Shown here in pieces: positions 741-64,000 of a stretch of DNA of 64,000 nt. How positions within the stretch are numbered: the first letter of the stretch is position 1; each line of letters opens with the position of its first letter. The stretch is taken from the IMG/VR virus record IMGVR_UViG_3300025162_000016, positions 1-64,000 of that record; one strand, 5' to 3'. The notes beneath the pieces are model-generated. The model had not been told where the DNA came from. It saw only the letters and a list, made by a program, of their open reading frames with translations, and made no database searches. The stretch is from a virus. The position numbers were made by a program, and so were the translations under genes.

Positions 741-2459
741 ATGACAGAAAAACAATCACTCCCATCAAGCGTTTATAATTGGAAGAGACAAAAGCCAGAT
801 TCTCGTGATTATAAATTTGCAGAAATACCTTCGGTGAAACGATTAAAAGTAACAACTCCACCACCGGTTGTTAATTTACGAAAATGGTGTTCTGAAGTAG
901 AAAATCAAAAATCTTTAGGTAGTTGTTTTACCGGCGATACTTTAATTCCTCTTTTGAATGGAAAGATAGCTACACTGAAAGAACTTACAGATGGGATGTA
1001 TGGGAAAACTTTTTGGGTATATGGAAATAAAAATGGAAGAATGGTTCCTGCGTTAGCATCCGCATCTCTTACACAGTATATCGCACCCATTTATAATGTC
1101 ACATTAGATAATGGGAGAACAATAAAATGTACTGCTGATCATCAGTTTTTGATGCGAGATGGTAATTACAAAAAAGCAATGGAATTAGTATCTGGGGATA
1201 GTTTAATGTCATTTAGAAGAAAATATAATAAATTGGGATATGAGTATGTTTTTTGCCACAGTGACCACAAATATCATCTTACACATTGGTTAGTCGGAAG
1301 TTATATACATGATTATTCTGTTAATAAAAATGGAGTAGAAGTGATACATCATAAGGATTTTATTAAAAATAATAATACTCCGGAAAATTTGGTAGGAATG
1401 ACAATACAAGAACATTCAATATATCAAAATAAAACGGCGGAATGTAAATTAAAACGTTTTATCGCAGCGAAAAATAGATGGAAAGATATAACGCCGGAAG
1501 CTATGAGTCGTGTTGTAGATTCCGCAGAAATACGTTTGGGGGCAGTGGGAACACGAAGTCAGATAGCAAAAACAGCAAACGAGGTATTTCTTAAATGTGG
1601 AAATATTTCTAAAGAACAATGGGAAACGACGGACGTAACAAAACGATTTAAGTTTGAAACGGCGATGAAATATTTTGGAAACCAAGACGAGTTATTGATT
1701 GCTGCACAAAATTATAATCATAAAGTCGTATCGGTCATTAATAGTAATACATCCGAAGATGTTTATTGTCTCACGGTACCAGATACTCAAAATTTTGCAC
1801 TTAATGATGGAGTTTATGTTCATAATTGTACCGGCCAGGCGTGGGTGGGTTTAATGGAGTGGCATGAGAATTTCATGGGAAGAGGAGGAAAGGCATTTCA
1901 AAATCTTAGTCGGTTGTTTGTTTATTATAATGAACGGGAACTTGAAGGAACCATCAATGAGGATGCCGGTGCCGAATTAAGAAGTGGAGCAAAAGCATTG
2001 GCTACGTGGGGGGTTTGTTATGAAAAAAGTTGGCCTTATAACATTGATACTTTCACACAAAAACCAAGTCCAATATGTTATCAGGATGGAGCTATTCATA
2101 AAATTAATAGTTATTATTCTATCAGTACATTTAATCATCTTAAAATGTGTTTGGCAAACAATTTGCCGGTGGTATTTGGATTTATGGTATATTCGAGTTT
2201 TGATTCCGATGTGGTTGCTAAAACCGGTATAGCTTCTATGCCAGATATTAAAAACGAGGAATTGCTGGGGGGACACGCCGCAATGATTGTGGGATATAAT
2301 AATTATGAGAAGCGATTTTTAGTAAGAAATTCGTGGGGGAAAAATTGGGGACTTAAAGGAATTAATGCCGGTTATTTTACGCTTCCCTACGATTATGTGG
2401 CTAATCCCAATCTTGCCAGTGATTTTTGGACGGTGGTTCGTATTGTCGAAGACGCATGA
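741..2459 (+). CDS. Papain-like (C1 family) cysteine peptidase precursor interrupted by an intein
   Basis: Joined exteins give NQKSLGS|CTGQAWV (Gln...Cys active-site block). Downstream GGHAAMIVGY and NSWGKNWG blocks are typical of C1 peptidases. Confidence 0.7.
   Translation: MTEKQSLPSSVYNWKRQKPDSRDYKFAEIPSVKRLKVTTPPPVVNLRKWCSEVENQKSLGSCFTGDTLIPLLNGKIATLKELTDGMYGKTFWVYGNKNGRMVPALASASLTQYIAPIYNVTLDNGRTIKCTADHQFLMRDGNYKKAMELVSGDSLMSFRRKYNKLGYEYVFCHSDHKYHLTHWLVGSYIHDYSVNKNGVEVIHHKDFIKNNNTPENLVGMTIQEHSIYQNKTAECKLKRFIAAKNRWKDITPEAMSRVVDSAEIRLGAVGTRSQIAKTANEVFLKCGNISKEQWETTDVTKRFKFETAMKYFGNQDELLIAAQNYNHKVVSVINSNTSEDVYCLTVPDTQNFALNDGVYVHNCTGQAWVGLMEWHENFMGRGGKAFQNLSRLFVYYNERELEGTINEDAGAELRSGAKALATWGVCYEKSWPYNIDTFTQKPSPICYQDGAIHKINSYYSISTFNHLKMCLANNLPVVFGFMVYSSFDSDVVAKTGIASMPDIKNEELLGGHAAMIVGYNNYEKRFLVRNSWGKNWGLKGINAGYFTLPYDYVANPNLASDFWTVVRIVEDA
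924..1826 (+). mobile_element. Intein (301 aa) with HNH homing-endonuclease domain, inserted at the catalytic Cys of the peptidase
   Basis: Starts CFTGDTLIPL and ends VYVHN followed by Cys+1. Internal HNH motif VIHHKDFIKNNNTPENLVGMTIQEH. Confidence 0.75.
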
Positions 2460-50590: not shown

Positions 50591-51004
50591 ATGTCGGATT
50601 TAGGACATTGGATGCTTCCTGCTGATGCATTACAGGATATTCCTGTAGATTCCATTGGATTTGTTTATTGTATTACTAATAAAACTACTAATAAAAAATA
50701 CATTGGCAAAAAACTATTAGAAAATAAAAAGAAAAGAAAGCCATTGAAAGGTAGGGTTAATTCTAGAAGATATAAAGTAGAATCTAATTGGAAAGAATAT
50801 ACCGGATCATCTCCTATATTAAATGCAGATATAGAAAAATGCGGCAAAGAAAACTTTATATTTGATATTTTATCTTTTCAACCATCTAAACTTCTGTTAG
50901 CATATTGGGAAACTAAAACTATTATAGATCGAAATGCTATTTTTAGTAATGAATACTATAATGAAGTTTGTAACTTACGAATACGCAATAGAAAATCACA
51001 ATGA
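50591..51004 (+). CDS. GIY-YIG endonuclease-like protein
   Basis: GFVYCITNKTTNKKYIGKK motif. Confidence 0.5.
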   Translation: MSDLGHWMLPADALQDIPVDSIGFVYCITNKTTNKKYIGKKLLENKKKRKPLKGRVNSRRYKVESNWKEYTGSSPILNADIEKCGKENFIFDILSFQPSKLLLAYWETKTIIDRNAIFSNEYYNEVCNLRIRNRKSQ

Positions 51005-51303
51005 AATCCGGTTATTTATATATTGTTATAAATCCTGCCTTTCCGTTATGGTGCAAAATAGGCATCACTACCAATCTTAAAGAACGAATTTATTTGTACC
51101 AAACTTGTGATCCCCACCGAGGATACAAACTGGTGTATTCCCTTTATCATCCGGATTACAAAGAAGCTGAGAAAAAAATAAAAAAAGCTATAAAACCATT
51201 CGCAAAATCAATTAAAAACGAATGGGCCGAAATTGATTTGGAAATGTGTAAAAGTCGCCTTCAAGAGTCGCTCGAATCCTATCAATCTGGCGAGTGGATG
51301 TGA
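51001..51303 (+). CDS. T5orf172/GIY-YIG-superfamily domain protein
   Basis: GYLYIVINPAFPLWCKIGITTNLKERI...NEWAEIDL. Confidence 0.45.
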   Translation: MKSGYLYIVINPAFPLWCKIGITTNLKERIYLYQTCDPHRGYKLVYSLYHPDYKEAEKKIKKAIKPFAKSIKNEWAEIDLEMCKSRLQESLESYQSGEWM

Positions 51304-52530
51304 AAACTCCCCTACCCTAAAGGGATAGGGGCTTCTATGCTGTTCACAGCAAGAGATTGTCTTCCCAATCTCAAAATGTTTCTTGCCGCATTTATGTCTC
51401 TATCCATAGATAGACCACACGAACAATTGAAAACTCGATCTTTCAACTCCATTATCGTTCTCGTTCCACATTGGCTGCAAGTTTGACTAGTATAGGCAGG
51501 GTTGATTTTTATCAATATCTTATCAGCATATGCTGCTTTATAAGATATTATGTTTCCAAACATACTCCACGCTACATCATTTATCTGTTTACTACACCAT
51601 CTTTTCTTTAACAATTTATTTGTTTCAATATCTTCTATAAATATAAAATCATATCTGTTTAATATACCATTTGTTGTTTTGTGAAGAAAATCATTTCTCT
51701 TATTTACAATTCTCTCATGAATTCTTCTAGCAACTTTCCATTTTTTCTGTCTCTGTTTTTTTGCTAATTGCTTTTGCTCTTTCTCAAAAAATCGTGGATT
51801 GTTTATTTTAGTTCCATCATCAAAAGTGGCAAAAGATAGAATCCCAACATCTATTCCAGTTTCTTTACCTGTTCTTCTAAATTGTTTTTTATTATTTGGA
51901 ATATCGCAACAAGATATAGAAACGAACCATTTATTTGTTGGGGTTTTGGCTATGGTTATAGTTTTTGGAGTTCCAAATAATTTTCTATGTAATACAATAT
52001 CAACTTCTCCTACTTTTGATAATAATAATTTATTTTCTTTTATTTCGCACCCATTATTATATTGCGGGTAACAAATAGAAAAATATCTACCTTTTCCACG
52101 AAATCTAGGATATCCCGGAGTATCTCCATTTTTCAATCTTCTAAAAAATCCTTGGTATGCTAAATCAACTCTTATTGCTACATTTTGTAAACATTGAGAA
52201 TATACAGAAGTTAGTTGGGGATATGTTTCTTTTAAAATTGGTATTTGTTTGATTGAATCATAACAAGACACAGACTTCTTTTCTTTTTCCCAACTATTCT
52301 TTCTAATTTCAAGTAAATGATTATAGAGAAACCTACAAGTTTCCAACTGGTTATTCAGGATTGTCTCCTGTTTCTTTGTTGGATATATTCTGTATTTATA
52401 TGTAAGTTTCATTTTCTACATATATGTATATCAAAGAATGTGAAAACGTTGATTTATTTTGAATTATTTTTCTCTTGGTCGAATTCATCCCCAAGGCTAA
52501 AGCCGTTGGGGTTTTCTTCTCCCAAGATTA
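51301..52530 (-). mobile_element. IS200/IS605-family element carrying only tnpB (copy 2). Boundaries are approximate
   Basis: The RE (reverse complement GAAGCCCCTATCCCtttaGGGTAGGGGAGTTTTCA) abuts the stop codon of the 51001 ORF. LE hairpin at 52489..52511 followed by GGGGATGAAT. Confidence 0.65.
51312..52412 (-). CDS. tnpB: TnpB (IS605 OrfB-type), paralog of 7596..8672
   Basis: MKLTYKYRIYPTKKQ...LETCRFLYNHLLEIRKN. GIDVGI, FIEDI, YTSQTCSQCG, DRDINAARNI. Confidence 0.85.
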   Translation of the reverse strand: MKLTYKYRIYPTKKQETILNNQLETCRFLYNHLLEIRKNSWEKEKKSVSCYDSIKQIPILKETYPQLTSVYSQCLQNVAIRVDLAYQGFFRRLKNGDTPGYPRFRGKGRYFSICYPQYNNGCEIKENKLLLSKVGEVDIVLHRKLFGTPKTITIAKTPTNKWFVSISCCDIPNNKKQFRRTGKETGIDVGILSFATFDDGTKINNPRFFEKEQKQLAKKQRQKKWKVARRIHERIVNKRNDFLHKTTNGILNRYDFIFIEDIETNKLLKKRWCSKQINDVAWSMFGNIISYKAAYADKILIKINPAYTSQTCSQCGTRTIMELKDRVFNCSCGLSMDRDINAARNILRLGRQSLAVNSIEAPIPLG

Positions 52531-53663: not shown

Positions 53664-56600
53664 ATGAAAGTATTACAAGTTCGGAATCAAAACTTTAAAA
53701 GAATAATCCATCTGGCAGATGTTCATATTCGTCTTTTAAAACGACATATAGAATATAAAGAAGTATTCGATAAATTTTTTGAAGAGATATCCATATTATC
53801 GAAAGAAGAAACTTGTATCTGTATTCTCGGAGATGTTTTTCATTCAAAAACCGATCTTCAACCGGAATCTATAGAACTATGTAATTATTTTCTGTCGGGG
53901 TGTGCTAATAGGTTTCCAACTATTTTAATAGCGGGAAATCACGACGCTATTTTATCTAATAAAACAAGATTGGATTCGTTATCTCCAATCGTCAAGGCGT
54001 TAAATAATCCTAATTTGTATTATCTTAACAAAACCGATTTATATGGATTTGGAAATATCCTATTTAACAACATGTGTATTTTCGATGATCCAGAGAAATA
54101 CATGAAGGGATATGATATTCCAGAGGTATATCGAAATCAATATTCTCATATTATAGCACTTTTCCATGGAGCAGTGGATGGGTCAGTTACAGATACCGGA
54201 TTTCGAATGAATAATCCCGCTATCATGCCCCCGTTATTTGATTGGCATCATATCGCATTATTAGGAGATATACACAAAAGACAGAATATACAGGAAGCAA
54301 TACCAGAAGAACATAAACCGTGCATTCATTTTTGCGGCTCATTATTGCAACAAAATCATGGAGAATCTTTACACGGTCATGGATATACATTATGGGATTT
54401 AAAAGATTATTCTTATAAACACGTTGAAGTTCTCAATGATTATGGACATTTTACATTAGAATTAAATGGCGGGCAAATATTAACTAATTTAGACGATTTG
54501 CCGAAAAAAACATATCTTCGAATAAAATGTTTAGATACTATACCTTCAGAGGTCAAAGCTACCGAAGCAAAACTTTCATTGCTTACAGAAATAGTTGAAA
54601 CTGCCAGAATTCGTATTGAGTCTGAAACAGATAAACAGGCAAAAAAAGAACGAGTTTGTAAAGATGTGAAATTGGCAGAAATTGCAGATGTCGATTATCA
54701 AAATAAACTTATTACTGAATTTCTAGAAGTTAAAGAGAATCTTCGAGACAAATCTAAGGTTGATAAAATTCTTCTTATTAATAGAGAAGTTAATACCGAA
54801 ATTAAAAAAGATGAGTTTGCTCGTAATATTAAATGGATTCCTATTAAATTCGAATGGTCGAATATGTTTGTTTATGGAGAAAATAACGTTATAGATTTCA
54901 CTCAAATGCGTGGAACCTATGGCGTATTTGGACCAAATACATGTGGCAAATCCAGTATATTTTCCGCATTGTGTTTCTGTATGTTTGATAAATGGGATAG
55001 AGGATATAAATCTATCGTGGCTCGTAATGTTTCTACACAGGGATTTCACTGTAAGTTTGAATTTGAAATTAGTGGTATACGTTACTTTATAGAAAAAACC
55101 GGAGAAACCACTAAGGGTGGGAACGTTCGTGTCGAAGTTAATTTTTGGAGAATAGTGGACAGGGTTGTGCAAGATCTGACAGATGTGATGCGCCGTAAAA
55201 CCAATGATGTTATTCGTGATTATGTTGGAACATTTGAGGATTTTATTGTTACCACGTTGTCAGTTCAAACTGTAACTAAAAACACGATTTCATTTATTGA
55301 TTTAGGAAATACTGAACGAAAAGATCTTTTAGTTCAGTTTATGGGGCTTAATGTTTTTGATAAATTGTATGATGCGGCTTATGCTAAAGGAAAAGAGTTA
55401 ACTATTGAACTTAAACCACATAAAGATAAAAATTATATAAAGGACTTGGATGATACCGAGGCAACATTAAAATACACGCAGTTAGCGATTGGGGAATGTC
55501 AACATGTTGCGGAGGACGTATCTCGACAGGTCAAAGAAGTCAATGATAATATTGTGATTGAAACCACAAAATTAATAAAATTGGATAACGAAGTGCCTAC
55601 TGATATTCTTTTTCTGGAAAAGAAACGTTTATCTTCCATCGCAGAGACGGAAAAACTAATAAAACAGATTGGCATTGATAAACCGAAATTAGAAATTTAT
55701 CGCAAAAAAATGCTGGAGTTGAACGAACAACTTTCAGAAATCATTGCGGCAGATTTGGTTAAAGAACATAAAAAATATAATGAAATTTGTAAGCAATTGA
55801 ATGATGAAACTCGTAAATATGAACTTAAAAAAGTTGAGATTAAAAATAAACTAGATAAATTAAAAAAACTGGAGGAATATAAATACGATCCGAACTGTGT
55901 TTTTTGTGTCGAAAATGTGTTCGTAAAAGATGCCCGACAAACGAAATCCGTTCTAAAAACGGATCAGGAAGAGATGAACATAGCATTTGCCTCTATCACA
56001 AAACTCAAAGAACAACAGAAGGAATGTGATTGGGTAGATGCCGCATATCAGCATTATACTAAATTATTAAATGATCATAGTAAAGCTAAAGATGATTTTA
56101 CTACATTAAATACCAAAATCCTTTTAACCGAGAAAGATGTCGAAAAGGGAACCCAATCACTGTTAGAAACCGAACGTAAAATCGAACTTTATCATCGAAA
56201 TCAAATTGCATTGGAAAATAACCAAAAGATCAACCTAATCATTTTAACATATAAAAATACTCTAAATAAACTTGAATCTACATTTAATTCTAATAATAAA
56301 AAACTACTTGAATTGGTAGGGAAAGAACAAGTTCTAAAGGGAACGGTTCAAACTGTAACGGAAACCATTCAAAAAATGATTGATACTGAGGAAAAAAGGG
56401 AATTATATGAGTATTATTGTAGGGCGGTCGGACGCAATGGCATTCCTTACGTGGTTATTTGTAATACTATACCAGAGATTACTCGGGAAATTAATGCTAT
56501 TTTAACACAAACTACTGATTTTACGGTGGATATAGAATACGATGAGAAAAATATTACCCCTTATGTTAATTATGAAACAAAAGGACGCTGGGTAGTTGAG

Positions 56601-56876
56601 TCTTTAAGTGGGTTTGAACGGGTTATAACTTCAATTGCAATCCGAGTTGCTTTATGTAATATATCTAATCTACCCAGAAATAACTTCCTAATCGTGGATG
56701 AAGGCTGGGGGGCTCTTGATGCTCATAATTTATCATCTGTCCCGGTTTTACTATCGGTGTTAAAAAGTCATTTTGATTTTATAATAATCATTTCACACTT
56801 AAATGTATTGAGAGATTATACGGATAATCAAATAGAAATAAAACAAATAGGAAATTTTAGTAAAGTTACATTTTAG
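53664..56876 (+). CDS. Fused Mre11/SbcD-like phosphoesterase + Rad50/SbcC-like ATPase
   Basis: HLADVH, GDVFH, GNHD, FHG and GDIH motifs. Then Walker A GPNTCGKSS, a long coiled coil with a CVFC hook-like motif, LSGFER signature, LIVDEG Walker B and IIISH. Confidence 0.7.
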   Translation: MKVLQVRNQNFKRIIHLADVHIRLLKRHIEYKEVFDKFFEEISILSKEETCICILGDVFHSKTDLQPESIELCNYFLSGCANRFPTILIAGNHDAILSNKTRLDSLSPIVKALNNPNLYYLNKTDLYGFGNILFNNMCIFDDPEKYMKGYDIPEVYRNQYSHIIALFHGAVDGSVTDTGFRMNNPAIMPPLFDWHHIALLGDIHKRQNIQEAIPEEHKPCIHFCGSLLQQNHGESLHGHGYTLWDLKDYSYKHVEVLNDYGHFTLELNGGQILTNLDDLPKKTYLRIKCLDTIPSEVKATEAKLSLLTEIVETARIRIESETDKQAKKERVCKDVKLAEIADVDYQNKLITEFLEVKENLRDKSKVDKILLINREVNTEIKKDEFARNIKWIPIKFEWSNMFVYGENNVIDFTQMRGTYGVFGPNTCGKSSIFSALCFCMFDKWDRGYKSIVARNVSTQGFHCKFEFEISGIRYFIEKTGETTKGGNVRVEVNFWRIVDRVVQDLTDVMRRKTNDVIRDYVGTFEDFIVTTLSVQTVTKNTISFIDLGNTERKDLLVQFMGLNVFDKLYDAAYAKGKELTIELKPHKDKNYIKDLDDTEATLKYTQLAIGECQHVAEDVSRQVKEVNDNIVIETTKLIKLDNEVPTDILFLEKKRLSSIAETEKLIKQIGIDKPKLEIYRKKMLELNEQLSEIIAADLVKEHKKYNEICKQLNDETRKYELKKVEIKNKLDKLKKLEEYKYDPNCVFCVENVFVKDARQTKSVLKTDQEEMNIAFASITKLKEQQKECDWVDAAYQHYTKLLNDHSKAKDDFTTLNTKILLTEKDVEKGTQSLLETERKIELYHRNQIALENNQKINLIILTYKNTLNKLESTFNSNNKKLLELVGKEQVLKGTVQTVTETIQKMIDTEEKRELYEYYCRAVGRNGIPYVVICNTIPEITREINAILTQTTDFTVDIEYDEKNITPYVNYETKGRWVVESLSGFERVITSIAIRVALCNISNLPRNNFLIVDEGWGALDAHNLSSVPVLLSVLKSHFDFIIIISHLNVLRDYTDNQIEIKQIGNFSKVTF

Positions 56877-56908: not shown

Positions 56909-59650
56909 ATGAGTTTGTTATCATCATTTGGGAAGCAAGGCGAGACGCTCGGGTTGCTTACCCTTAAAGCGGACATCGAAGATACAGCACAGCTATCTAA
57001 ATATTTCGCATTGACGGAGTTTGACCCTGTTTTTACCGCAGGGAAAAACTCCGTTGCTTTTAATGGATCTAATCTGTTAAAGGATAAATCCGAGGTTAAA
57101 GTCGAATGTATAGATTCTCATGGCAATTCCTTATATATGGAAAATGCCAGAGCAATCAATTCACAGTTCACGGATGCGTCCAAATTTGTTTTAGCGGTTC
57201 ATATCTATGAGGAAGTTTATAATGGACCAGGAAAATTAATCCTTGTAGGAACTACCGTTCGAGGAGAAATCGTCAGATGGATAGGAAACATCACTATAGA
57301 TAAAACCCTCGATAATAGTTCTAAAGTCAGATTTTATTATAAACCCACACTGGAAATCCGTCCTTTATTATATCCACTTATAGATACAGGAGTGGCTCAA
57401 ACAATTTATCCTCCCCTTCCGGCCACAAGAGGCGCAACTGCAATTGCAACTATAACAGGCAAAATCGAGCATATAGAAATTACTATCGGAGGAAGGGACT
57501 ATACATATGCGCAGGTTGGACTTAAGCGTGGTCCATTCTATACACAGTGGGTCAGTGCAGATGTGGTGGTAGATATACATGGAAGTATTATATCCCTTGT
57601 TATAACCGGACAGATGCCACCATGGGAAGGTGTGGTGGAAAGAATAGAAATAAAAGGAGATGGATATGGTGCATTTGGAACTCCAGTCAAGTTAAATCAA
57701 GTTGCGTCTATTATTTTGCAAGATGGCGGAATAGGATATACGTATAACCCTGTAGTTACAATTACCGGAGTTGCTGGAACTGGAGCAACAGCAACCGCAA
57801 CTGTATTTAACAGCGTCGTAACTTCTGTTGAACTCACAAATTCAGGGTCTGGATATACCGCCATTCCTACTGTTAATTTTGAGGTTCCTCCTTATGTTCC
57901 CCCGGCGATATTAAATGTTCCAGTATCTTTTACTGGAAGTTTTTATACGTATGCAACTAATCCGCTTAGAGATGCGGATAAGTTCACACTTAATGCTAAA
58001 CAAACGGAGGTTGATTATCGTCTAATATTATCTGGATCAACCGATGATTTTAAATTAGATTCGCCGACATTTCCTTCTAATTCATTTAATAGTCAAATGG
58101 AAGGACAGACTATTAATTTAAATATAAGTGAAATTTTACTTCCCTTTTCTTATCAAACAGTATCCTCAAGTATAACCCAATCTTTTACAATTAAAAAAGT
58201 AAAGGACAATAAAACCATTCAATTATCGGAACCCTTTTATTATGCGGATGGAAAAAATGAATTTGTTGCTCATATTACTAAAGGAACATTCAATTGTTTA
58301 TATGACTATGTTTTATATAACACAAACCCAGATTCTGTAAAAAAAATAAAAACATCTCCAACTGAAACAGTAAATGTTGAAGAATCTCACGCCGAAATTA
58401 CGTATAGAAATCTCCGAACTTATTCGGGATTTGTAGCTCGACATAAATTATATCGAAAAAGCGCATTTGCTCCGGGCGATTTTCAATTAATTTCAGATGA
58501 ATTATTAGGATCATTAGAGTTATTACAAGACACGGTGACTTTTAATAAATTTTATGATAGAATGGGAGTATTTTATAATCAACTTCATGTTGACAAATAT
58601 TGGTTTACCAGTTCAAACGCTATAAGTGTTCAAGCACAATCTTCTCCTCTTAATTCAATGAAGATTTCGGGAAGTACTCCAACCACGTTTGATGGTCATC
58701 AATATGTTATCATAAAAAATGATTCTACCGGTGGTATTAATGATAATATATATTATCCTTACAACGAAATAGAATTTAATCGACAATCGGGATCATCCTA
58801 CAATGCTAATTTTGTACCTCTTAAGAAAGACGCACTATATGCACTTTCTTTTAATGTGACAATGGAAAAAGAGGCATTGGATACAACTGCCAATGTTGCA
58901 TTCTATTTTACTAGTTCCATTCCCAGTATAAAGTTAGAAAAATCATATGAATCCCCACACGGATTGAAATTAGGAGCGGTATCTACAACAGATAAAACTG
59001 CCATAAAATATTTTACGGATAAACAAGTATTATATTTTACTCCAACTAATGATTATTATGGAACTTTAGTAGTAATACCATATCATTGCAATGTTATATT
59101 ATCGGATATTTCTTTAAAATTGTATGGAGATCATGGGTTTTCTCCGGATATTCTTTTTATTAGAATACCGTTTCCGTTAAAAGTCGCAAATGAAGCATTT
59201 AACTTGAAAGCGGAGTTATTAGATATTAATTCTAATGTGGTTTTTTCTAACATTACATCAACCCAAACGTTTGATACAATTGGCGCTAGTTTGAATGGGG
59301 CTGGAGTTAGTAATTTAAACGCCGTCATTTCAGTTGTACCAACGGACGGCACAACGCCCCCCACGGTTGTAGTTACAGGAACCCCATATCTCCCAGATTT
59401 AGCCGCTGCTACGGATCTTATTAGATTTGTTGGATGGCACATTCCAACCGATGTAGGAGAAAAAGGAAAACTGTGCTATACCAATGTATCTCAATTATTT
59501 ATTGATTCAGACGAATATATTGTATTAAATTCGTATGAAAGTGGAATAGAACATATTGCGAAATCCGTGGCAGTTAGATATGACTTTTCTGTCGGCCAAG
59601 GTCGCAAAATCGTGGTTAATACTCTTGGAGTTAAAGAATCGTTCCCGTAA
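56909..59650 (+). CDS. Large virion structural protein with G.GYT..P.V tandem modules
   Basis: DGGIGYTYNPVVTITGVAGTGATATATV...NSGSGYTAIPTVNFE. Confidence 0.4.
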   Translation: MSLLSSFGKQGETLGLLTLKADIEDTAQLSKYFALTEFDPVFTAGKNSVAFNGSNLLKDKSEVKVECIDSHGNSLYMENARAINSQFTDASKFVLAVHIYEEVYNGPGKLILVGTTVRGEIVRWIGNITIDKTLDNSSKVRFYYKPTLEIRPLLYPLIDTGVAQTIYPPLPATRGATAIATITGKIEHIEITIGGRDYTYAQVGLKRGPFYTQWVSADVVVDIHGSIISLVITGQMPPWEGVVERIEIKGDGYGAFGTPVKLNQVASIILQDGGIGYTYNPVVTITGVAGTGATATATVFNSVVTSVELTNSGSGYTAIPTVNFEVPPYVPPAILNVPVSFTGSFYTYATNPLRDADKFTLNAKQTEVDYRLILSGSTDDFKLDSPTFPSNSFNSQMEGQTINLNISEILLPFSYQTVSSSITQSFTIKKVKDNKTIQLSEPFYYADGKNEFVAHITKGTFNCLYDYVLYNTNPDSVKKIKTSPTETVNVEESHAEITYRNLRTYSGFVARHKLYRKSAFAPGDFQLISDELLGSLELLQDTVTFNKFYDRMGVFYNQLHVDKYWFTSSNAISVQAQSSPLNSMKISGSTPTTFDGHQYVIIKNDSTGGINDNIYYPYNEIEFNRQSGSSYNANFVPLKKDALYALSFNVTMEKEALDTTANVAFYFTSSIPSIKLEKSYESPHGLKLGAVSTTDKTAIKYFTDKQVLYFTPTNDYYGTLVVIPYHCNVILSDISLKLYGDHGFSPDILFIRIPFPLKVANEAFNLKAELLDINSNVVFSNITSTQTFDTIGASLNGAGVSNLNAVISVVPTDGTTPPTVVVTGTPYLPDLAAATDLIRFVGWHIPTDVGEKGKLCYTNVSQLFIDSDEYIVLNSYESGIEHIAKSVAVRYDFSVGQGRKIVVNTLGVKESFP

Positions 59651-59711
59651 ATATTTATAGAAAAATATAGAAAAATATACTTTTTGAATAAGAATGTTCA
59701 TATATACTAAT

Positions 59712-59876
59712 ATGAAACTATCTCATTGGGCAAAAACTCAAGGCATTACTTACCGGACCGCATGGAATTGGTTTAAAGCAGGGAAAATGCCGGTGAAGAC
59801 TATTCAAACTAAAACCGGAACAATATTGGTTGAAATCTCATCTCCAATTAATTGTATAAAAAAGTCAAAGCCATGA
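59712..59876 (+). pseudogene. Stand-alone IS607-TnpA-type HTH (truncated tnpA remnant or domesticated regulator)
   Basis: MKLSHWAKTQGITYRTAWNWFKAGKMPVKTIQTKTGTILVE is close to the N-terminus of the 11080 TnpA and has no recombinase domain. The upstream ATATAGAAAAATAT block is shared. Confidence 0.5.
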
Positions 59877-59921
59877 AATCTGAGTTTTGATGATGTAAAA
59901 TAAGCATATTAAAAAGTAATT

Positions 59922-60569
59922 ATGTATAAGAATAAATCGAATATTTCCATAGTAAAATCTTATTTGGCAGGGGAACGTCCATTTGTGAAGGTAGGATATT
60001 CCGTACCCGAAATTAAACGAGAAATCGGTTCTACCTGGGTTGATAATCAGGATGTAAAATGGGAACAAAAAGATGGATATAAAACCCGAATCAATGAACA
60101 AGCTAATATGATTAAAGCGGCAATGAAACGAAAATGCAAATGTGGACAGGAAATTCAATATGGAAGTAGATTGGATGAAGTATTCTTTTCTAAAACAGGT
60201 AAATGCTTTGATTGTATTATTAAAGAAGAAACCGAATACCGAGTTTTAGGAGTCTATCCTCAATACGAAGCTTTCAAACTTCTATCGAATTATTTAGGAT
60301 TTTTAGAAGATATGAAACAGAAAATTGAAGATAGTATAAAATATTTTCAAACAGAAGATGGAACTTTGCAAATCTTATGTAATAGTGAAGGATTTTTGGA
60401 AAAATTCAAAGGAATAAATACCGAAGAATTATTGGTTTCTGCTAAAAATGATTTGTCCGAAATTACAAAGTTAATTTCAAAAACGTCCAAAGATAAAAAG
60501 AAAGCCAAAAAGACATTTAATGAGGATTTAAAAAAGACCCGAAAGAATTTAACTTCTAGCATAAAATGA
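59922..60569 (+). CDS. Hypothetical protein (small-terminase position)
   Basis: Immediately upstream of and overlapping terL. CKCG...CFDC zinc ribbon. Function not recognisable. Confidence 0.3.
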   Translation: MYKNKSNISIVKSYLAGERPFVKVGYSVPEIKREIGSTWVDNQDVKWEQKDGYKTRINEQANMIKAAMKRKCKCGQEIQYGSRLDEVFFSKTGKCFDCIIKEETEYRVLGVYPQYEAFKLLSNYLGFLEDMKQKIEDSIKYFQTEDGTLQILCNSEGFLEKFKGINTEELLVSAKNDLSEITKLISKTSKDKKKAKKTFNEDLKKTRKNLTSSIK

Positions 60570-61159
60570 GCGATAATACAGTAAAAAGATCTCTTCAAGA
60601 GATCATTAAAGAAGAATATAAAAAATGCTTAATAGATCCGGTATATTTCATGCGGAAATATGTCAAAATTCAGCATCCTATTCGTGGAACTATAGCGTTC
60701 GATCTTTATCCGTTTCAAGCATCTACGCTGAAAGATTTTGCCGATAATGATTTCAGCATCGTATTGAAATCTCGCCAAATGGGAATATCCACACTAGTAG
60801 CGGCATATTCTCTGTGGCTTATGATTTTTCATAAAGATAAAAATGTACTTATCATTTCTATTAAACAAGACGTATCTAAAGAAATTGTATCAAAAATTCG
60901 ATTTGCAAATGATAATCTTCCGTCTTGGATGAGGGTAGAATGCAAAGAAGATAATCGACTATCACTTAAATTAGCCAATGGATCACAAGTATCAGCGGTC
61001 TCATCTGCTACAACCGCAGGGAGATCCGCAGCACTTAGTCTTTTAGTTTTAGATGAATGTTGCGAAAAATCTACAGTGGTGTATATTCGAAACAAGAAAA
61101 CCGGCGAAACAAAACCGGTAAAAATTGGTGAATTATATGAATCAAATATATACGTGTAA
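60566..61159 (+). CDS. terL: Terminase large subunit, N-terminal fragment ending in a 33-aa split-intein N-piece
   Basis: Walker A-like KSRQMGIST, Walker B LLVLDE. CCEKSTVVYIRNKKTGETKPVKIGELYE then a stop. Confidence 0.75.
   Translation: MSDNTVKRSLQEIIKEEYKKCLIDPVYFMRKYVKIQHPIRGTIAFDLYPFQASTLKDFADNDFSIVLKSRQMGISTLVAAYSLWLMIFHKDKNVLIISIKQDVSKEIVSKIRFANDNLPSWMRVECKEDNRLSLKLANGSQVSAVSSATTAGRSAALSLLVLDECCEKSTVVYIRNKKTGETKPVKIGELYESNIYV
61058..61156 (+). mobile_element. Split intein, N-fragment (33 aa)
   Basis: Begins with Cys directly after LDE. T4-type terminases read DECAFI, which is restored by joining to CAFIEK at 62906. Confidence 0.6.
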
Positions 61160-62573
61160 ACTGGATAATAAAGAATGCAAATCGCAGTCAGAATTTGTGG
61201 TTCATTTGAAAAAATGTCATGGATTTAATACGAAAAGTTATTATGATTCGGTGATTAAACCCGGATTAAATGGGAAATGTTTAAATTGTACAAAAGATAC
61301 GATTTTTTTAGGATTGCGGGAGGGATATCAAAAATTTTGTTCTAATAAATGCCGCAGTGAATATTTTAAAAATCACAAGGAGTTGCAAGAGTTACGAACA
61401 CAAAAAATAAAAAAAACTAAGTTAGAAAAATATGGAGACGAAAATTATAATAATGTAGATAAAATGCAGAAAACATGTTTGAAAAAATATGGGAAAATAA
61501 CAGCTACTGGCACCGAAGAATATAATAAAAAACATCGTGAAACTTGTTTAAAGAGATATGGAGTGGAACATCATGCTCAATCCGACGAAGTAAAAAATAA
61601 GTCTAAACAGACATGTTTAAATCATTATGGAGTGGAATATACGTTACAATCAAAGGAAATAAGAGATAGGATAGATAATACTGTTAATGAAAAATATGGC
61701 GGATATACATTGGCATCGAAGACATTATCGGAGAAAATGAAAAATACAATGATAGAGAAGTATGGCGTGGAAAATGCGCTACAAAGTGATGTCATAAAAG
61801 AAAAGCAACGGGCAACCAATCGGGAGAGATATGGAGCATCTGTGCCAACTCAAAATAAAGATGTTATTTTAAAAATGAAGAAAAGTAACATAAAAAAATA
61901 TGGAATTGAGAATACTTTTAATCTTATACAGACAAAAAACACTTTTCTGGAAAAATATAACGTTATAAACCCATCTCAAATACCGGCAGTTCAAGAAAAA
62001 ATTAAGGAAACGTGTCTGGAGAAATATGGTAGTAATACTTTTTTTGCCTCGGATTATGCAAAGGAAAAAATTAAAAATACATGCATGGAACGATATGGAG
62101 TGTCCTGTGTTTTATTGCTCCCCGAAATAAAAGAAAAATCGAAGCAAACCAACATTTTAAAGTATGGAGTTGCACACCCAATGCAAAATTCAATAATTAG
62201 AAACAAAGTAATGTCGGCTATAAATAGAAAGTCGTATAAATTACAACAATATATGACCATTTTTAACGATAATATTGTATATCAATCTCTTCCGGAACTT
62301 GCATTTATTAAGCTGTGCGAATCGAGGGGACTTCGAATTTTAAATGGACCGGTTTTACCGTATATTTTAGATGAAAAAAACAGAATGTATTATTCAGACT
62401 TTTTAATTTCCGACACGAAAAGTCAGCGAATAGTAGAAATTAAAAGAAAGCATGAATGGTGGTTTTCCGGATTAAAATCGGGAGAAATTAAAGCAAAAAC
62501 GAAATGCGCAATAAAATTCAGTAAAGAAAATGGATATTTGCCGTATAAAATCATTTTCGAAAATAAGATATGA
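61137..62573 (+). CDS. Free-standing nuclease between the terL halves (Zn fingers + ~12 tandem ~23-aa repeats + PD-(D/E)xK-like C-terminus)
   Basis: Repeats of type .TCL.KYGVE...QS. C-terminal YYSDFLI...IVEIKRK (D...ExK). Alternative start at 61125. Confidence 0.55.
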   Translation: MNQIYTCKLDNKECKSQSEFVVHLKKCHGFNTKSYYDSVIKPGLNGKCLNCTKDTIFLGLREGYQKFCSNKCRSEYFKNHKELQELRTQKIKKTKLEKYGDENYNNVDKMQKTCLKKYGKITATGTEEYNKKHRETCLKRYGVEHHAQSDEVKNKSKQTCLNHYGVEYTLQSKEIRDRIDNTVNEKYGGYTLASKTLSEKMKNTMIEKYGVENALQSDVIKEKQRATNRERYGASVPTQNKDVILKMKKSNIKKYGIENTFNLIQTKNTFLEKYNVINPSQIPAVQEKIKETCLEKYGSNTFFASDYAKEKIKNTCMERYGVSCVLLLPEIKEKSKQTNILKYGVAHPMQNSIIRNKVMSAINRKSYKLQQYMTIFNDNIVYQSLPELAFIKLCESRGLRILNGPVLPYILDEKNRMYYSDFLISDTKSQRIVEIKRKHEWWFSGLKSGEIKAKTKCAIKFSKENGYLPYKIIFENKI

Positions 62574-64000
62574 GCAATTTTAAAAAAATATCGGATTGGG
62601 AAGTATTAACTCCAAATGGGTGGAGCGAGTTTAAAGGGGTTCAGGTTCGTCAAAAAGATTGTTATATTAAAATGGTATTTGATGATGGAACAATTTTAGA
62701 ATGTTCGGAAAATCATAAAATTAAATTATTAAATGGTAAATTTGAATATGTTAAAAACATTGAACTTGGCACTTCGATTTTAGCATTAAATGGAAATAAA
62801 ATTTTAGTATCTAAAGAGAAGATTGATGGGGAAATTGATTTATATGATTTGATAGAAGTGAAGAAAAACCGGGAATTTTATTCCAACGATATTTTATCAA
62901 GTAATTGTGCATTTATTGAAAAGGCGGAAGAGATTTGGGCGGCAGCCCAGCCCACACTATCTTGTTTAGATAAAAATACACTTATTTTATCCGACATGGG
63001 TTTAATTCGTTTGGAAACTTTTATTAATAGCTCAACTAAACTGGAATTTAATCCTGTAAATATAAAAACACATGATGGCGATAATATGGTTGATGTTTCT
63101 TCTTTTTATAAATCCGAAAAATCGGATTTATATGAAGTGGAATTTGAAAGTGGTGGCAAGATTGTTGGAACCGAGAATCATCCATTAATGACAAAAAGCG
63201 GGTGGAAAACTATTGGGGATTTAAACGAAAATGAGGATGCTGTTTTATGTAAATATTCTCAAAATGTTTTTGGTTCATCTATAGATTATACTAAATTCAA
63301 TCCCAATATTAGGAAGGATGCTATTGTTTATAAATTCTCCAATGAAGAAATTGCTTATTTGTGCGGGATTTGGACCGCTGAAGGTCACATTTGTAAAAAA
63401 ACAGTTGGGATTACTAACACAGATAAAGAAATAACCGATTGGTTAAAAGAAAAAGGATTTAAATGTTATGATGATAGACATTATTATTTAAGTTCGGGTT
63501 GGGTGGTTAATCTTTTAAAATGGATAGGATGTGAAGGAACGGCTCATACAAAACGAATTCCGGAACGAATTCTTGCGGCATCCCAAGAAGAACAAATTGC
63601 GTTTCTTCAAGGATTGTTTGATGGAGATGGTTGTTCATTAGGTTCCAAAGGAATTAAACTTACATCGGGTTCATATGAACTGCTTTCTAATGTGAGAGTT
63701 GTTCTATTGAATATGGGAATAAATTCTTATATACGAAATGCAGTATGGAAATCAACAAAATCCACGGTTATTAAAGATAAAACTAGAATTTTCAGTGGGT
63801 ATGAATTACATATTGGAGGTTTTGACGCCCATTCATTTTATTCTACAATTGGGTTTAGAATTAAAAGAAAACAACTTGGCTGGCAAAAGTTATCAAGAAA
63901 ATCTATTAAACGGATTTTTCCAGATAAGACAATCGTTAAAAACTTAATTCTTGAAAGTGGGATGTCGGTTAGAAAATTTTCAAAAAAACACAAGTGTTAT
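62570..64000 (+). CDS. terL: Terminase large subunit, C-terminal fragment (partial, runs off the window). Starts with the split-intein C-piece and contains a second intein
   Basis: The ATG overlaps the upstream TGA. My translation is open to 64000: MSNFKKISDWEV...DILSSN|CAFIEKAEEIWAAAQPTLS|CLDKNTLIL... Confidence 0.7.
   Translation, partial: MSNFKKISDWEVLTPNGWSEFKGVQVRQKDCYIKMVFDDGTILECSENHKIKLLNGKFEYVKNIELGTSILALNGNKILVSKEKIDGEIDLYDLIEVKKNREFYSNDILSSNCAFIEKAEEIWAAAQPTLSCLDKNTLILSDMGLIRLETFINSSTKLEFNPVNIKTHDGDNMVDVSSFYKSEKSDLYEVEFESGGKIVGTENHPLMTKSGWKTIGDLNENEDAVLCKYSQNVFGSSIDYTKFNPNIRKDAIVYKFSNEEIAYLCGIWTAEGHICKKTVGITNTDKEITDWLKEKGFKCYDDRHYYLSSGWVVNLLKWIGCEGTAHTKRIPERILAASQEEQIAFLQGLFDGDGCSLGSKGIKLTSGSYELLSNVRVVLLNMGINSYIRNAVWKSTKSTVIKDKTRIFSGYELHIGGFDAHSFYSTIGFRIKRKQLGWQKLSRKSIKRIFPDKTIVKNLILESGMSVRKFSKKHKCY
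62573..62905 (+). mobile_element. Split intein, C-fragment (~111 aa)
   Basis: Hint-like ...GTILECSENHKIKLLNGKF...DLYDLIEVKKNREFYSNDILSSN followed by Cys+1. Confidence 0.55.
62963..64000 (+). mobile_element. Second terL intein with LAGLIDADG endonuclease (partial at the window end)
   Basis: Starts CLDKNTLILSD, TENHPLMT block B-like, LAGLIDADG motifs YLCGIWTAEGH and FLQGLFDGDGC. Confidence 0.7.

Follow-up and report, generated by a model that had tools for sequence, protein, structure and literature searches.

A large terminase gene probably fractured by a short-N split intein and a free-standing nuclease gene in a T4-like phage

How can a phage make its large terminase when the gene breaks off directly after the catalytic glutamate of the Walker-B motif and a different reading frame stands before its continuation? 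This question is raised by terL, the gene of the large terminase subunit, at the end of a 64,000-nucleotide stretch of viral DNA (IMG/VR record IMGVR_UViG_3300025162_000016, positions 1 to 64,000), which was analyzed as a whole and is called the window below. Our analysis indicates that terL is very probably a fractured large terminase gene of a T4-like phage, in which an atypical split intein and a free-standing nuclease gene separate the two halves. Fractured terL genes with atypical split inteins have been described before, and protein engineering already makes use of them. An earlier note, made from the sequence, had proposed the same reading, and the prior knowledge it invoked is correct (Dassa et al., 2009, PMC2677866; GOS-TerL and AceL-TerL, PMC11766414).

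The interrupted terL gene and its inteins

Three open reading frames (ORFs) lie in the same orientation on the plus strand and overlap at both junctions. ORF1 (60566..61159, 197 amino acids, aa) begins with 164 residues of TerL extein (60566..61057), which make up the ATPase's N-terminal portion with Walker A (SRQMGIST) and Walker B and end in LLVLDE at 61057. It continues as a 33-aa intein N-piece, CCEKSTVVYIRNKKTGETKPVKIGELYESNIYV (61058..61156), which runs from Cys1 to IGELYE and a tail, SNIYV, and is closed by a stop at 61157..61159. ORF2 (61137..62573, 478 aa) is the free-standing nuclease gene. ORF3 opens at 62570 with the intein C-piece (62570..62905), which holds block B (ECSENH) and blocks F/G (DLYDL...YSNDILSSN), followed by 19 residues of terL extein, CAFIEKAEEIWAAAQPTLS (62906..62962), whose +1 Cys (62906..62908) restores DE-C-AFI. 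The N-terminal 346 aa of a LAGLIDADG intein then fill 62963..64000, the rest lying beyond the window end. What the earlier note had read from the letters holds throughout, from the three ORFs and the Cys-initiated N-piece with its stop to the Zn fingers, repeats and nuclease core of ORF2. A small correction concerns the C-piece, which is Hint-like and ends in SSN/C as described (the slash marks the insertion point), but measures 112 aa instead of about 111.

The identity of the host gene is clear from ORF1, which matches Pfam Terminase_6N and phrog_5989 (2.7e-45 in PHROG) and is 59.6% identical to the TerL of Microcystis phage Mel-JY01 and 52% identical to that of Flavobacterium phage immuto. 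ORF1 aligns with uninterrupted TerLs up to the DE of LLVLDE and then diverges into the N-piece and the stop. This stop is genuine and no sequencing error, because identical sequence was found in contigs from at least six samples and the layout is kept in diverged and cultured phages. The exact 197-aa product of ORF1 is recorded in 25 index blocks, and 24 contigs were read for it. A 107.8-kb ENA contig (L004) is identical to the window over 13.4 kb, and five further contigs show 0-1 mismatches each.

Contig L004 also supplies the sequence beyond position 64000, where ORF3 is completed to 1378 aa (L004:12005-16141). A single locus search with the C-piece gave matches at extein level only, and these proved to be intein-less alleles. 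In the IMG/VR relatives L010, L011 and L012 terL is uninterrupted. The TerL of L011 has 539 aa, and the neighboring genes are the same as in the window phage. When ORF1 and ORF3 were aligned globally to the L011 TerL, exactly four extein blocks emerged, with 83% identity: aa 1-164 of ORF1, aa 113-131 of ORF3 (the 19-residue extein, with 18/19 residues identical and Ala in L011 at the +1 Cys position), aa 560-568 of ORF3 (TGGKAILLS), and ORF3 from aa 1028 to the end (TPNGVGNF...). The gaps correspond to the split intein (33 + 112 aa), a second intein of 428 aa and a third of 459 aa, and the N-piece is absent from L011. Since the L011 gene is uninterrupted, the three insertion points are fixed exactly. 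Relative to T4-type gp17, site a immediately follows the Walker-B Asp-Glu, site b is at PVIS/SG and site c falls in the TTTPNG region, which we take to be the ATPase coupling motif of T4 gp17. Nucleotide identity to the empty allele around the insertion sites was 72% overall, with no local peak and no co-conversion tract.

The nature of the first insert is indicated by a sequence search of solved structures. With the N- and C-pieces fused, the best match was CatC, an engineered consensus of the atypical TerL split inteins (PDB 6dsl_B, E = 6.2e-13; query 42-147 aligned to chain residues 16-114; approximately 38% identity, counted from the alignment), and a second match was the gp41-1 intein (9.6e-6). 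The 33-aa N-piece on its own gave only spurious pilin matches against PDB. The intein is broken between block A and block B, such that the N-piece has block A only and the C-piece has blocks B and F/G. Of the class-1 set, the window copy possesses Cys1, S-E-N-H, a terminal Asn and Cys+1, and it has Ser in the place of the penultimate His. A comparison of seven loci, i.e., the window phage together with L013, L014, L016, L017, L018 and L019, revealed that Cys1, an IRNK.T motif, the block-B His (H82), the terminal Asn (N145) and the +1 Cys are invariant, although the intein sequences of the other loci are only 38-62% identical to that of the window. The Met start of the C-piece is also conserved across the seven loci. 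The CatC match, the recurrence of the layout and the mapping of the junctions on L011 together support the fractured-gene reading put forward earlier.

Short-N split inteins in terminases are known from GOS-TerL, AceL-TerL and Cat-TerL. In the review PMC11766414, the N-piece of GOS-TerL is given as 37 aa and as reducible to 27, that of AceL-TerL as 25 aa, and Cat-TerL as a consensus; trans-splicing rates are reported for all three, and Thiel 2014, Bachmann and Mootz 2015, and Stevens 2018 are cited as primary sources. The window intein resembles them in its host, a T4-type large terminase, in the split between blocks A and B, and in the lengths of its N-piece (33 aa, against 25-37 aa in the known cases) and C-piece (112 aa, against 104-122 aa). 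With AceL-TerL it also shares Cys1 and Cys+1. It differs in that its N-piece owes the last ~6 residues to the overlap with the nuclease gene and in that its terL has two more inteins. Compared with CatC, to which it is ~38% identical, the penultimate residue is Ser and not His. GOS-TerL and AceL-TerL were compared by their published description.

The two further inteins are contiguous. Intein 2 (428 aa, CLDKNTL...GYINHN/T) is a class-1 LAGLIDADG intein that starts with the Cys at 62963, after ...PTLS, and contains the motifs LCGIWTAEG at ~63359 and LQGLFDGDG at 63605, as well as GTENH as block B. For the part of ORF3 inside the window, the match to Pfam LAGLIDADG_3 is 2.8e-19. Nine extein residues (TGGKAILLS) after intein 2, past the window end in L004, follows intein 3 (459 aa, CVTKDTM...GFIGHQ/T), also a LAGLIDADG intein, with CTKNH as block B and motifs ending in ...AEG and ...GDG. 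Both have two LAGLIDADG motifs with the acidic residues present. In this region TIGR01445 exceeds its cutoff in two stretches and LAGLIDADG_3 matches at 7.7e-34, and Pfam Intein_splicing is among the matches of intein 2. Their class-1 features comprise Cys1, T-x-x-H, a His-Asn or His-Gln end and a +1 nucleophile. The earlier note had correctly placed a LAGLIDADG intein 19 residues after the split site, running off the window, and the sequence beyond 64000 that it called for gives the end of this intein, GYINHN. However, it counted a single contiguous intein downstream and one cis-splicing event, whereas there are two such inteins, the second visible only beyond 64000, and two events would be needed.

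All three sites are thus occupied at once, within 28 extein residues of terL, and this accumulation near the ATPase center may be a new detail. In Kelley et al. (2016, PMC5050341), mycobacteriophage TerL inteins are described as concentrated in the ATPase domain, at Walker B and the C (coupling) motif, with LAGLIDADG endonuclease domains active on intein-less alleles. The placement at Walker B and the coupling motif is the same as in the window phage. In contrast, the mycobacteriophage inteins are single and contiguous, one per gene and mostly in unrelated TerL families, while here three sites are filled and one of the inteins is split.

From this anatomy we infer that TerL is assembled by trans- and cis-splicing. 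A contiguous mini-intein located directly after the Walker-B catalytic Glu (DE/C) would have been broken between blocks A and B by a free-standing homing-endonuclease gene, resulting in three products: TerL(1-164) with the 33-aa N-piece, the nuclease, and the 112-aa C-piece with the remaining TerL. The short N-piece would dock into the nearly complete C-piece and rebuild the HINT fold, and class-1 trans-splicing (Cys1, S-x-x-H, terminal Asn, +1 Cys) would then join ...LLVLDE to CAFIEK.... The C-half precursor would further lose the two contiguous LAGLIDADG inteins by cis-splicing, one after ...PTLS and the other nine residues on, after ...AILLS, leaving a mature TerL of ~543 aa.

The nuclease gene between the halves

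ORF2 combines three regions. Two Zn-finger-like Cys/His clusters (61155..61352; aa 7-28 and aa 48-72) stand at the N-terminus, and in 18 homologues C48, C51 and C68 are invariant and C7 is nearly so. They are followed by an array of twelve tandem helix-loop repeats of ~23 aa (61392..62192; consensus K..T...KYGV....Q), which are centered on [KRH]Y[GN] with a spacing of 19-23 aa and are covered by a match to Pfam DUF7487 (2.3e-58). The third region is a nuclease domain (62229..62558, aa ~365-474). ORF2 also matches phrog_3339 and phrog_12131, both labeled 'homing endonuclease'. In the AlphaFold model built with the 18 homologues (mean pLDDT 84), each 23-aa repeat forms one helix, and aa 370-474 make up an alpha/beta domain at the C-terminus. 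The repeat array is presumed to be a DNA-binding module. Analysis of the repeat positions for a recognition code gave conserved scaffold positions (K-9, T-5, Y0, G+1) as the only clear signal.

The C-terminal domain is predicted to be a canonical PD-(D/E)xK nuclease, because E387, D421, E434 and K436 (E387...D421...E434-x-K436) are invariant in the 18 homologues, no conserved His is found among them in this domain, and Foldseek matches the fold to Hjc, TnsA, Bax1 and RecU (probability 0.9-1.0, E for the whole model at best 2.7e-3) and also to McrC. Pfam adds a weak TnsA-like_N match at aa 407-473. In the Foldseek viral library, many proteins annotated as 'endonuclease-like' or DUF7487 were retrieved, including a TnsA-like 199-aa protein of Pseudomonas phage PspYZU05. 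Assignment to the Vsr-like/EDxHD type (I-Bth0305I) was rejected on account of the missing His and the absence of Vsr and I-Bth0305I from the top 50 Foldseek PDB matches, and no GIY-YIG or Vsr match of ORF2 was found in Pfam. No 'Hef' identity is claimed either, since comparison of ORF2 with the 'Hef85-like' endonuclease from Campylobacter phage CPX gave no significant similarity. Nor is ORF2 significantly similar to the 653-aa ORF that separates the parts of terL in Vibrio phage 1.244.A.

An endonuclease that is neither GIY-YIG nor Vsr-like may be new for fractured genes. Its protein most likely reads DNA with the Zn fingers and the 12-repeat array, and we infer that it binds and cleaves empty terL alleles: the PD-(D/E)xK domain would cut the intein-less terL of co-infecting relatives, and repair would copy in the whole cassette. 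In all seven contexts examined, the full-length form of ORF2 occurs only at the split-intein site at Walker B of terL. A bolder proposal is that Zn fingers, a 12-unit DUF7487 array and a PD-(D/E)xK domain define a distinct homing-endonuclease family, with the array reading a long DNA target in modular fashion, the start codon co-evolved into the IGELYE codons, and intein and nuclease forming one inseparable mobile unit. We put this forward only tentatively and consider it the less probable outcome.

The junctions of the nuclease gene are compact. In the window, ORF1 and ORF2 overlap by 23 nt, with the nuclease ATG at 61137 lying within the ELYE codons of the intein, and the ORF3 start at 62570 lies within the ORF2 stop in an ATGA overlap. 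At 61127..61130, a GGTG may serve as the ribosome-binding site (RBS) of ORF2. The arrangement recurs in 6/7 loci, where the nuclease ATG sits inside the conserved intein codons GAA-TTA-TAT-GA (ELYE), at a distance of 23-26 nt from the stop of the intein N-piece, and GGAG or GGTG from the Gly-Glu codons is found just upstream of the ATG. At the other end, the nuclease stop overlaps the start of the C-piece by 4-20 nt. These overlaps probably couple the translation of both halves, and a nuclease start codon embedded in conserved intein codons may be a new detail. The last 5-6 residues of the N-piece come from the 5' end of the nuclease gene, read in a different frame, and were probably no part of the ancestral intein, in line with the published trimming of the GOS-TerL N-piece from 37 to 27 aa.

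Related layouts and rival explanations

The layout is not restricted to the window phage. All full-length ORF2 homologues examined (36-55% identity; L013, L014, L016-L019) lie between terL halves, flanked by a terL N-half of 193-202 aa and a downstream ORF that starts with an intein C-piece, and a T4-type portal gene follows downstream in each of these loci. Additional terL inteins are absent from L014 and L016-L019, whereas L013 has one and the window phage two. An exhaustive HMMER search with the C-piece retrieved 780 cluster representatives (E <= 1e-3), and 96 deposited phage genomes have a related C-piece in terL. The arrangement is therefore commoner than the earlier note implied. Among the best 150 of the 780, 101 start with the C-piece, i.e., the split form, and 49 carry it internally. 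Several of the 49 are contiguous ...DEC...IGDLY... inteins at the same site, while some appear to be fusions of nuclease and C-piece or gene-call artefacts. The coexistence of contiguous and split forms fits the model of Dassa et al. (2009), where the split form arises from a contiguous intein broken by an endonuclease gene.

Cultured coliphages provide a counterpart. In the Tequatrovirus PD112 (Escherichia phage vB_vPM_PD112, MH837626.1, 115..2706), gp17 consists of two 'terminase large subunit' coding sequences (CDS) around a 199-aa 'hypothetical protein'. Its split intein is 33% identical to that of the window (E = 6e-23), and the intervening protein is 29% identical to the nuclease domain of ORF2 (E = 7e-7). 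When the PD112 halves are joined at DE/C, 70/70 residues equal those of contiguous T4-type gp17 in 498 records. This full identity is strong indirect evidence that precise splicing at DE/C restores the native enzyme and that such a layout is compatible with a viable phage. Besides the site, the homologous split intein and the PD-(D/E)xK domain, the coliphage and window systems share an N-terminal Zn finger in the nuclease. They differ in that the coliphage nuclease (199 aa) is without DUF7487 repeats, the N-piece has 41 aa, and gp17 has no further inteins. The match pattern suggests the same layout in HY03, SG1, JEP6, CE1 and others. Matches like those of PD112 were seen in the T-even-type phages HY03, SG1, JEP6, CE1 and PspYZU05, and the GenBank labels in T-even-type phages are two terminase CDS and a 'hypothetical protein' or 'endonuclease'.

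A different arrangement was observed in Campylobacter phage CPX (NC_016562.1, 25271..26599). Its terL C-half starts with a homologous intein C-piece, and the upstream neighbor is a gp13-like neck gene in place of a terL N-half. The halves of terL seem to be dispersed in the genome in the Fletchervirus group.

Dassa et al. (2009, PMC2677866) described 27 fractured loci. One of them, from Lake Gatun data, is a gp17-like terminase with an unusual break point, in which N1 is the only motif missing from the C-piece. The endonucleases of those loci are GIY-YIG or Vsr-like and are preceded by a spacer of 27-51 nt, usually with a hairpin or a late promoter. The window locus is similar in its phage setting, in the co-oriented series of host N-half with intein N-piece, endonuclease, and intein C-piece with host C-half, and in the overlap of the 3' end of the endonuclease gene with the start of the C-piece. 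It deviates in its E...D...ExK enzyme with a DUF7487 array and in having no spacer, as the 23-nt coding overlap takes its place in 6/7 loci. The T4 late-promoter core TATAAATA was not found upstream of ORF2. Over the whole window, TATAAATA has 29 occurrences against 16.1 expected, a number reached in 0/100 shuffles. A small GC-rich hairpin (ACCGG...CCGGT, 61100..61119) is present in the coding sequence of the N-piece, just upstream of the RBS region of the nuclease gene; it has no conserved counterpart in the six other loci.

Several observations speak against our interpretation. For the window copy, direct observation covers the anatomy of the sequence, its homologies and conservation, and the finding of empty alleles, so that its support comes from sequence comparison. 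The penultimate residue is Ser in the window copy and in L016 (SSN/C), compared with SHN/C in 5/7 loci, and this could slow Asn cyclisation. Pfam Intein_splicing misses the split intein, both fused and in place, and the AlphaFold model of the fused pieces, obtained with a 2-row alignment, is unusable (pLDDT 44). Intein 3 ends in Gln, which implies a rarer chemistry. However, the site-c intein of L013, allelic to intein 3 with 58% identity, has the same His-Gln end, so that the terminal Gln is conserved and does not reflect damage. With exteins of just 19 and 9 residues separating them, the three inteins could interfere with folding. The putative RBS of the nuclease gene and the presumed translational coupling could be side effects of the conserved IGELYE codons.

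The Ser in front of the terminal Asn also gives some weight to the idea that the TerL fragments work without covalent ligation, with the intein pieces as a mere affinity clamp or in decay, comparable to the split NrdA of phage Aeh1, which has no intein. Assembly of split genes without splicing is mentioned in the literature (PMC3045599). Nevertheless, the nucleophiles and the block-B His are invariant over seven loci despite the divergence of the inteins, related inteins are reported to splice, and the ATPase center should be disrupted by a 145-aa insert that immediately follows the catalytic Glu. We therefore regard this explanation as unlikely. Slightly more credit, albeit still little, can be given to the possibility that ORF2 is domesticated or regulatory and no longer mobile, for instance as an exclusion nuclease against competing phages or as a packaging accessory. 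The association with the split site of terL at 36-55% identity and the invariant catalytic residues indicate long-term purifying selection and not post-fixation decay, and according to PMC10448857 domestication is not judgeable from sequence alone. On the other hand, close relatives (L010-L012) have alleles without intein and nuclease and the intein family occurs in contiguous and split form, both of which fit ongoing cycles of gain and loss, and homing and exclusion are compatible with each other. Both explanations are disfavored, since the catalytic residues are invariant and empty, contiguous and split alleles coexist.

Finally, the interruption could be an artefact or be resolved at the RNA level, through mis-assembly, an error stop, a pseudogene or a group I intron with a nuclease ORF. 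ORF1 and ORF3 share a frame in the window and in 5/7 loci, which would suit such a view, but the loci are not independent and the count reaches p ~0.045 at best. As that frame is full of stops, readthrough was dismissed. Mis-assembly and a pseudogene are ruled out by the identical sequence in independent assemblies and by the conservation of the layout in diverged and cultured phages. A search of 59500..64000 against Rfam (E <= 1) gave no intron match and only a chance small RNA match. Together with the overlap of ORF2 with both neighbors, which leaves no non-coding core, this excludes a group I intron, and the C-piece moreover has its own conserved Met start. We consider this last group of explanations barely credible, and trans-splicing of a fractured terL remains the reading we favor.

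Mobile elements in the genome and what the locus offers

The genome of the window phage is heavily loaded with mobile elements. Directly downstream of terL and outside the window, the T4-type portal gene (L004:16099-19158, 1019 aa) has two mini-inteins, one at aa 126-294 and one at aa 578-722, whereas the portal of L011 is intein-less (673 aa); the portal product of L013 is annotated with three Intein_splicing hits. A 572-aa ORF at 741..2459 (plus strand) has an intein at aa 69-362 (Pfam Intein_splicing, 3.5e-22) with an HNH_3 motif. This intein sits in a papain-like cysteine protease (Peptidase_C1) and is related to the two portal mini-inteins. A cluster of mobile genes at 50591..52412 comprises a SegE-type GIY-YIG endonuclease (50591..51004), a T5orf172 protein (51001..51303) and, on the minus strand, an IS605 OrfB/TnpB (Cas12f-like) gene (51312..52412). 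A separate 1070-aa ORF (53664..56876, plus strand) joins a Metallophos (SbcD/Mre11-like) N-terminus and an SMC_N (SbcC/Rad50-like) C-terminus in one polypeptide and is conserved in L004, L005 and L016.

With this locus, the small family of split inteins whose N-piece is very short, which is used for protein labeling and semisynthesis, gains a natural member that is population-verified. Its six diverged orthologues and the cultured-coliphage counterpart could be screened for faster or orthogonal splicing. In addition, the locus gives the uncharacterised Pfam family DUF7487 a genomic target that is specific and conserved, and thereby offers an entry to recognition by the repeats. For the phage, it reveals the load of selfish elements that essential genes may bear, with three inteins within 28 residues of the ATPase center, two in the portal and one in a protease, and homing is open to a direct test because close relatives have empty sites.

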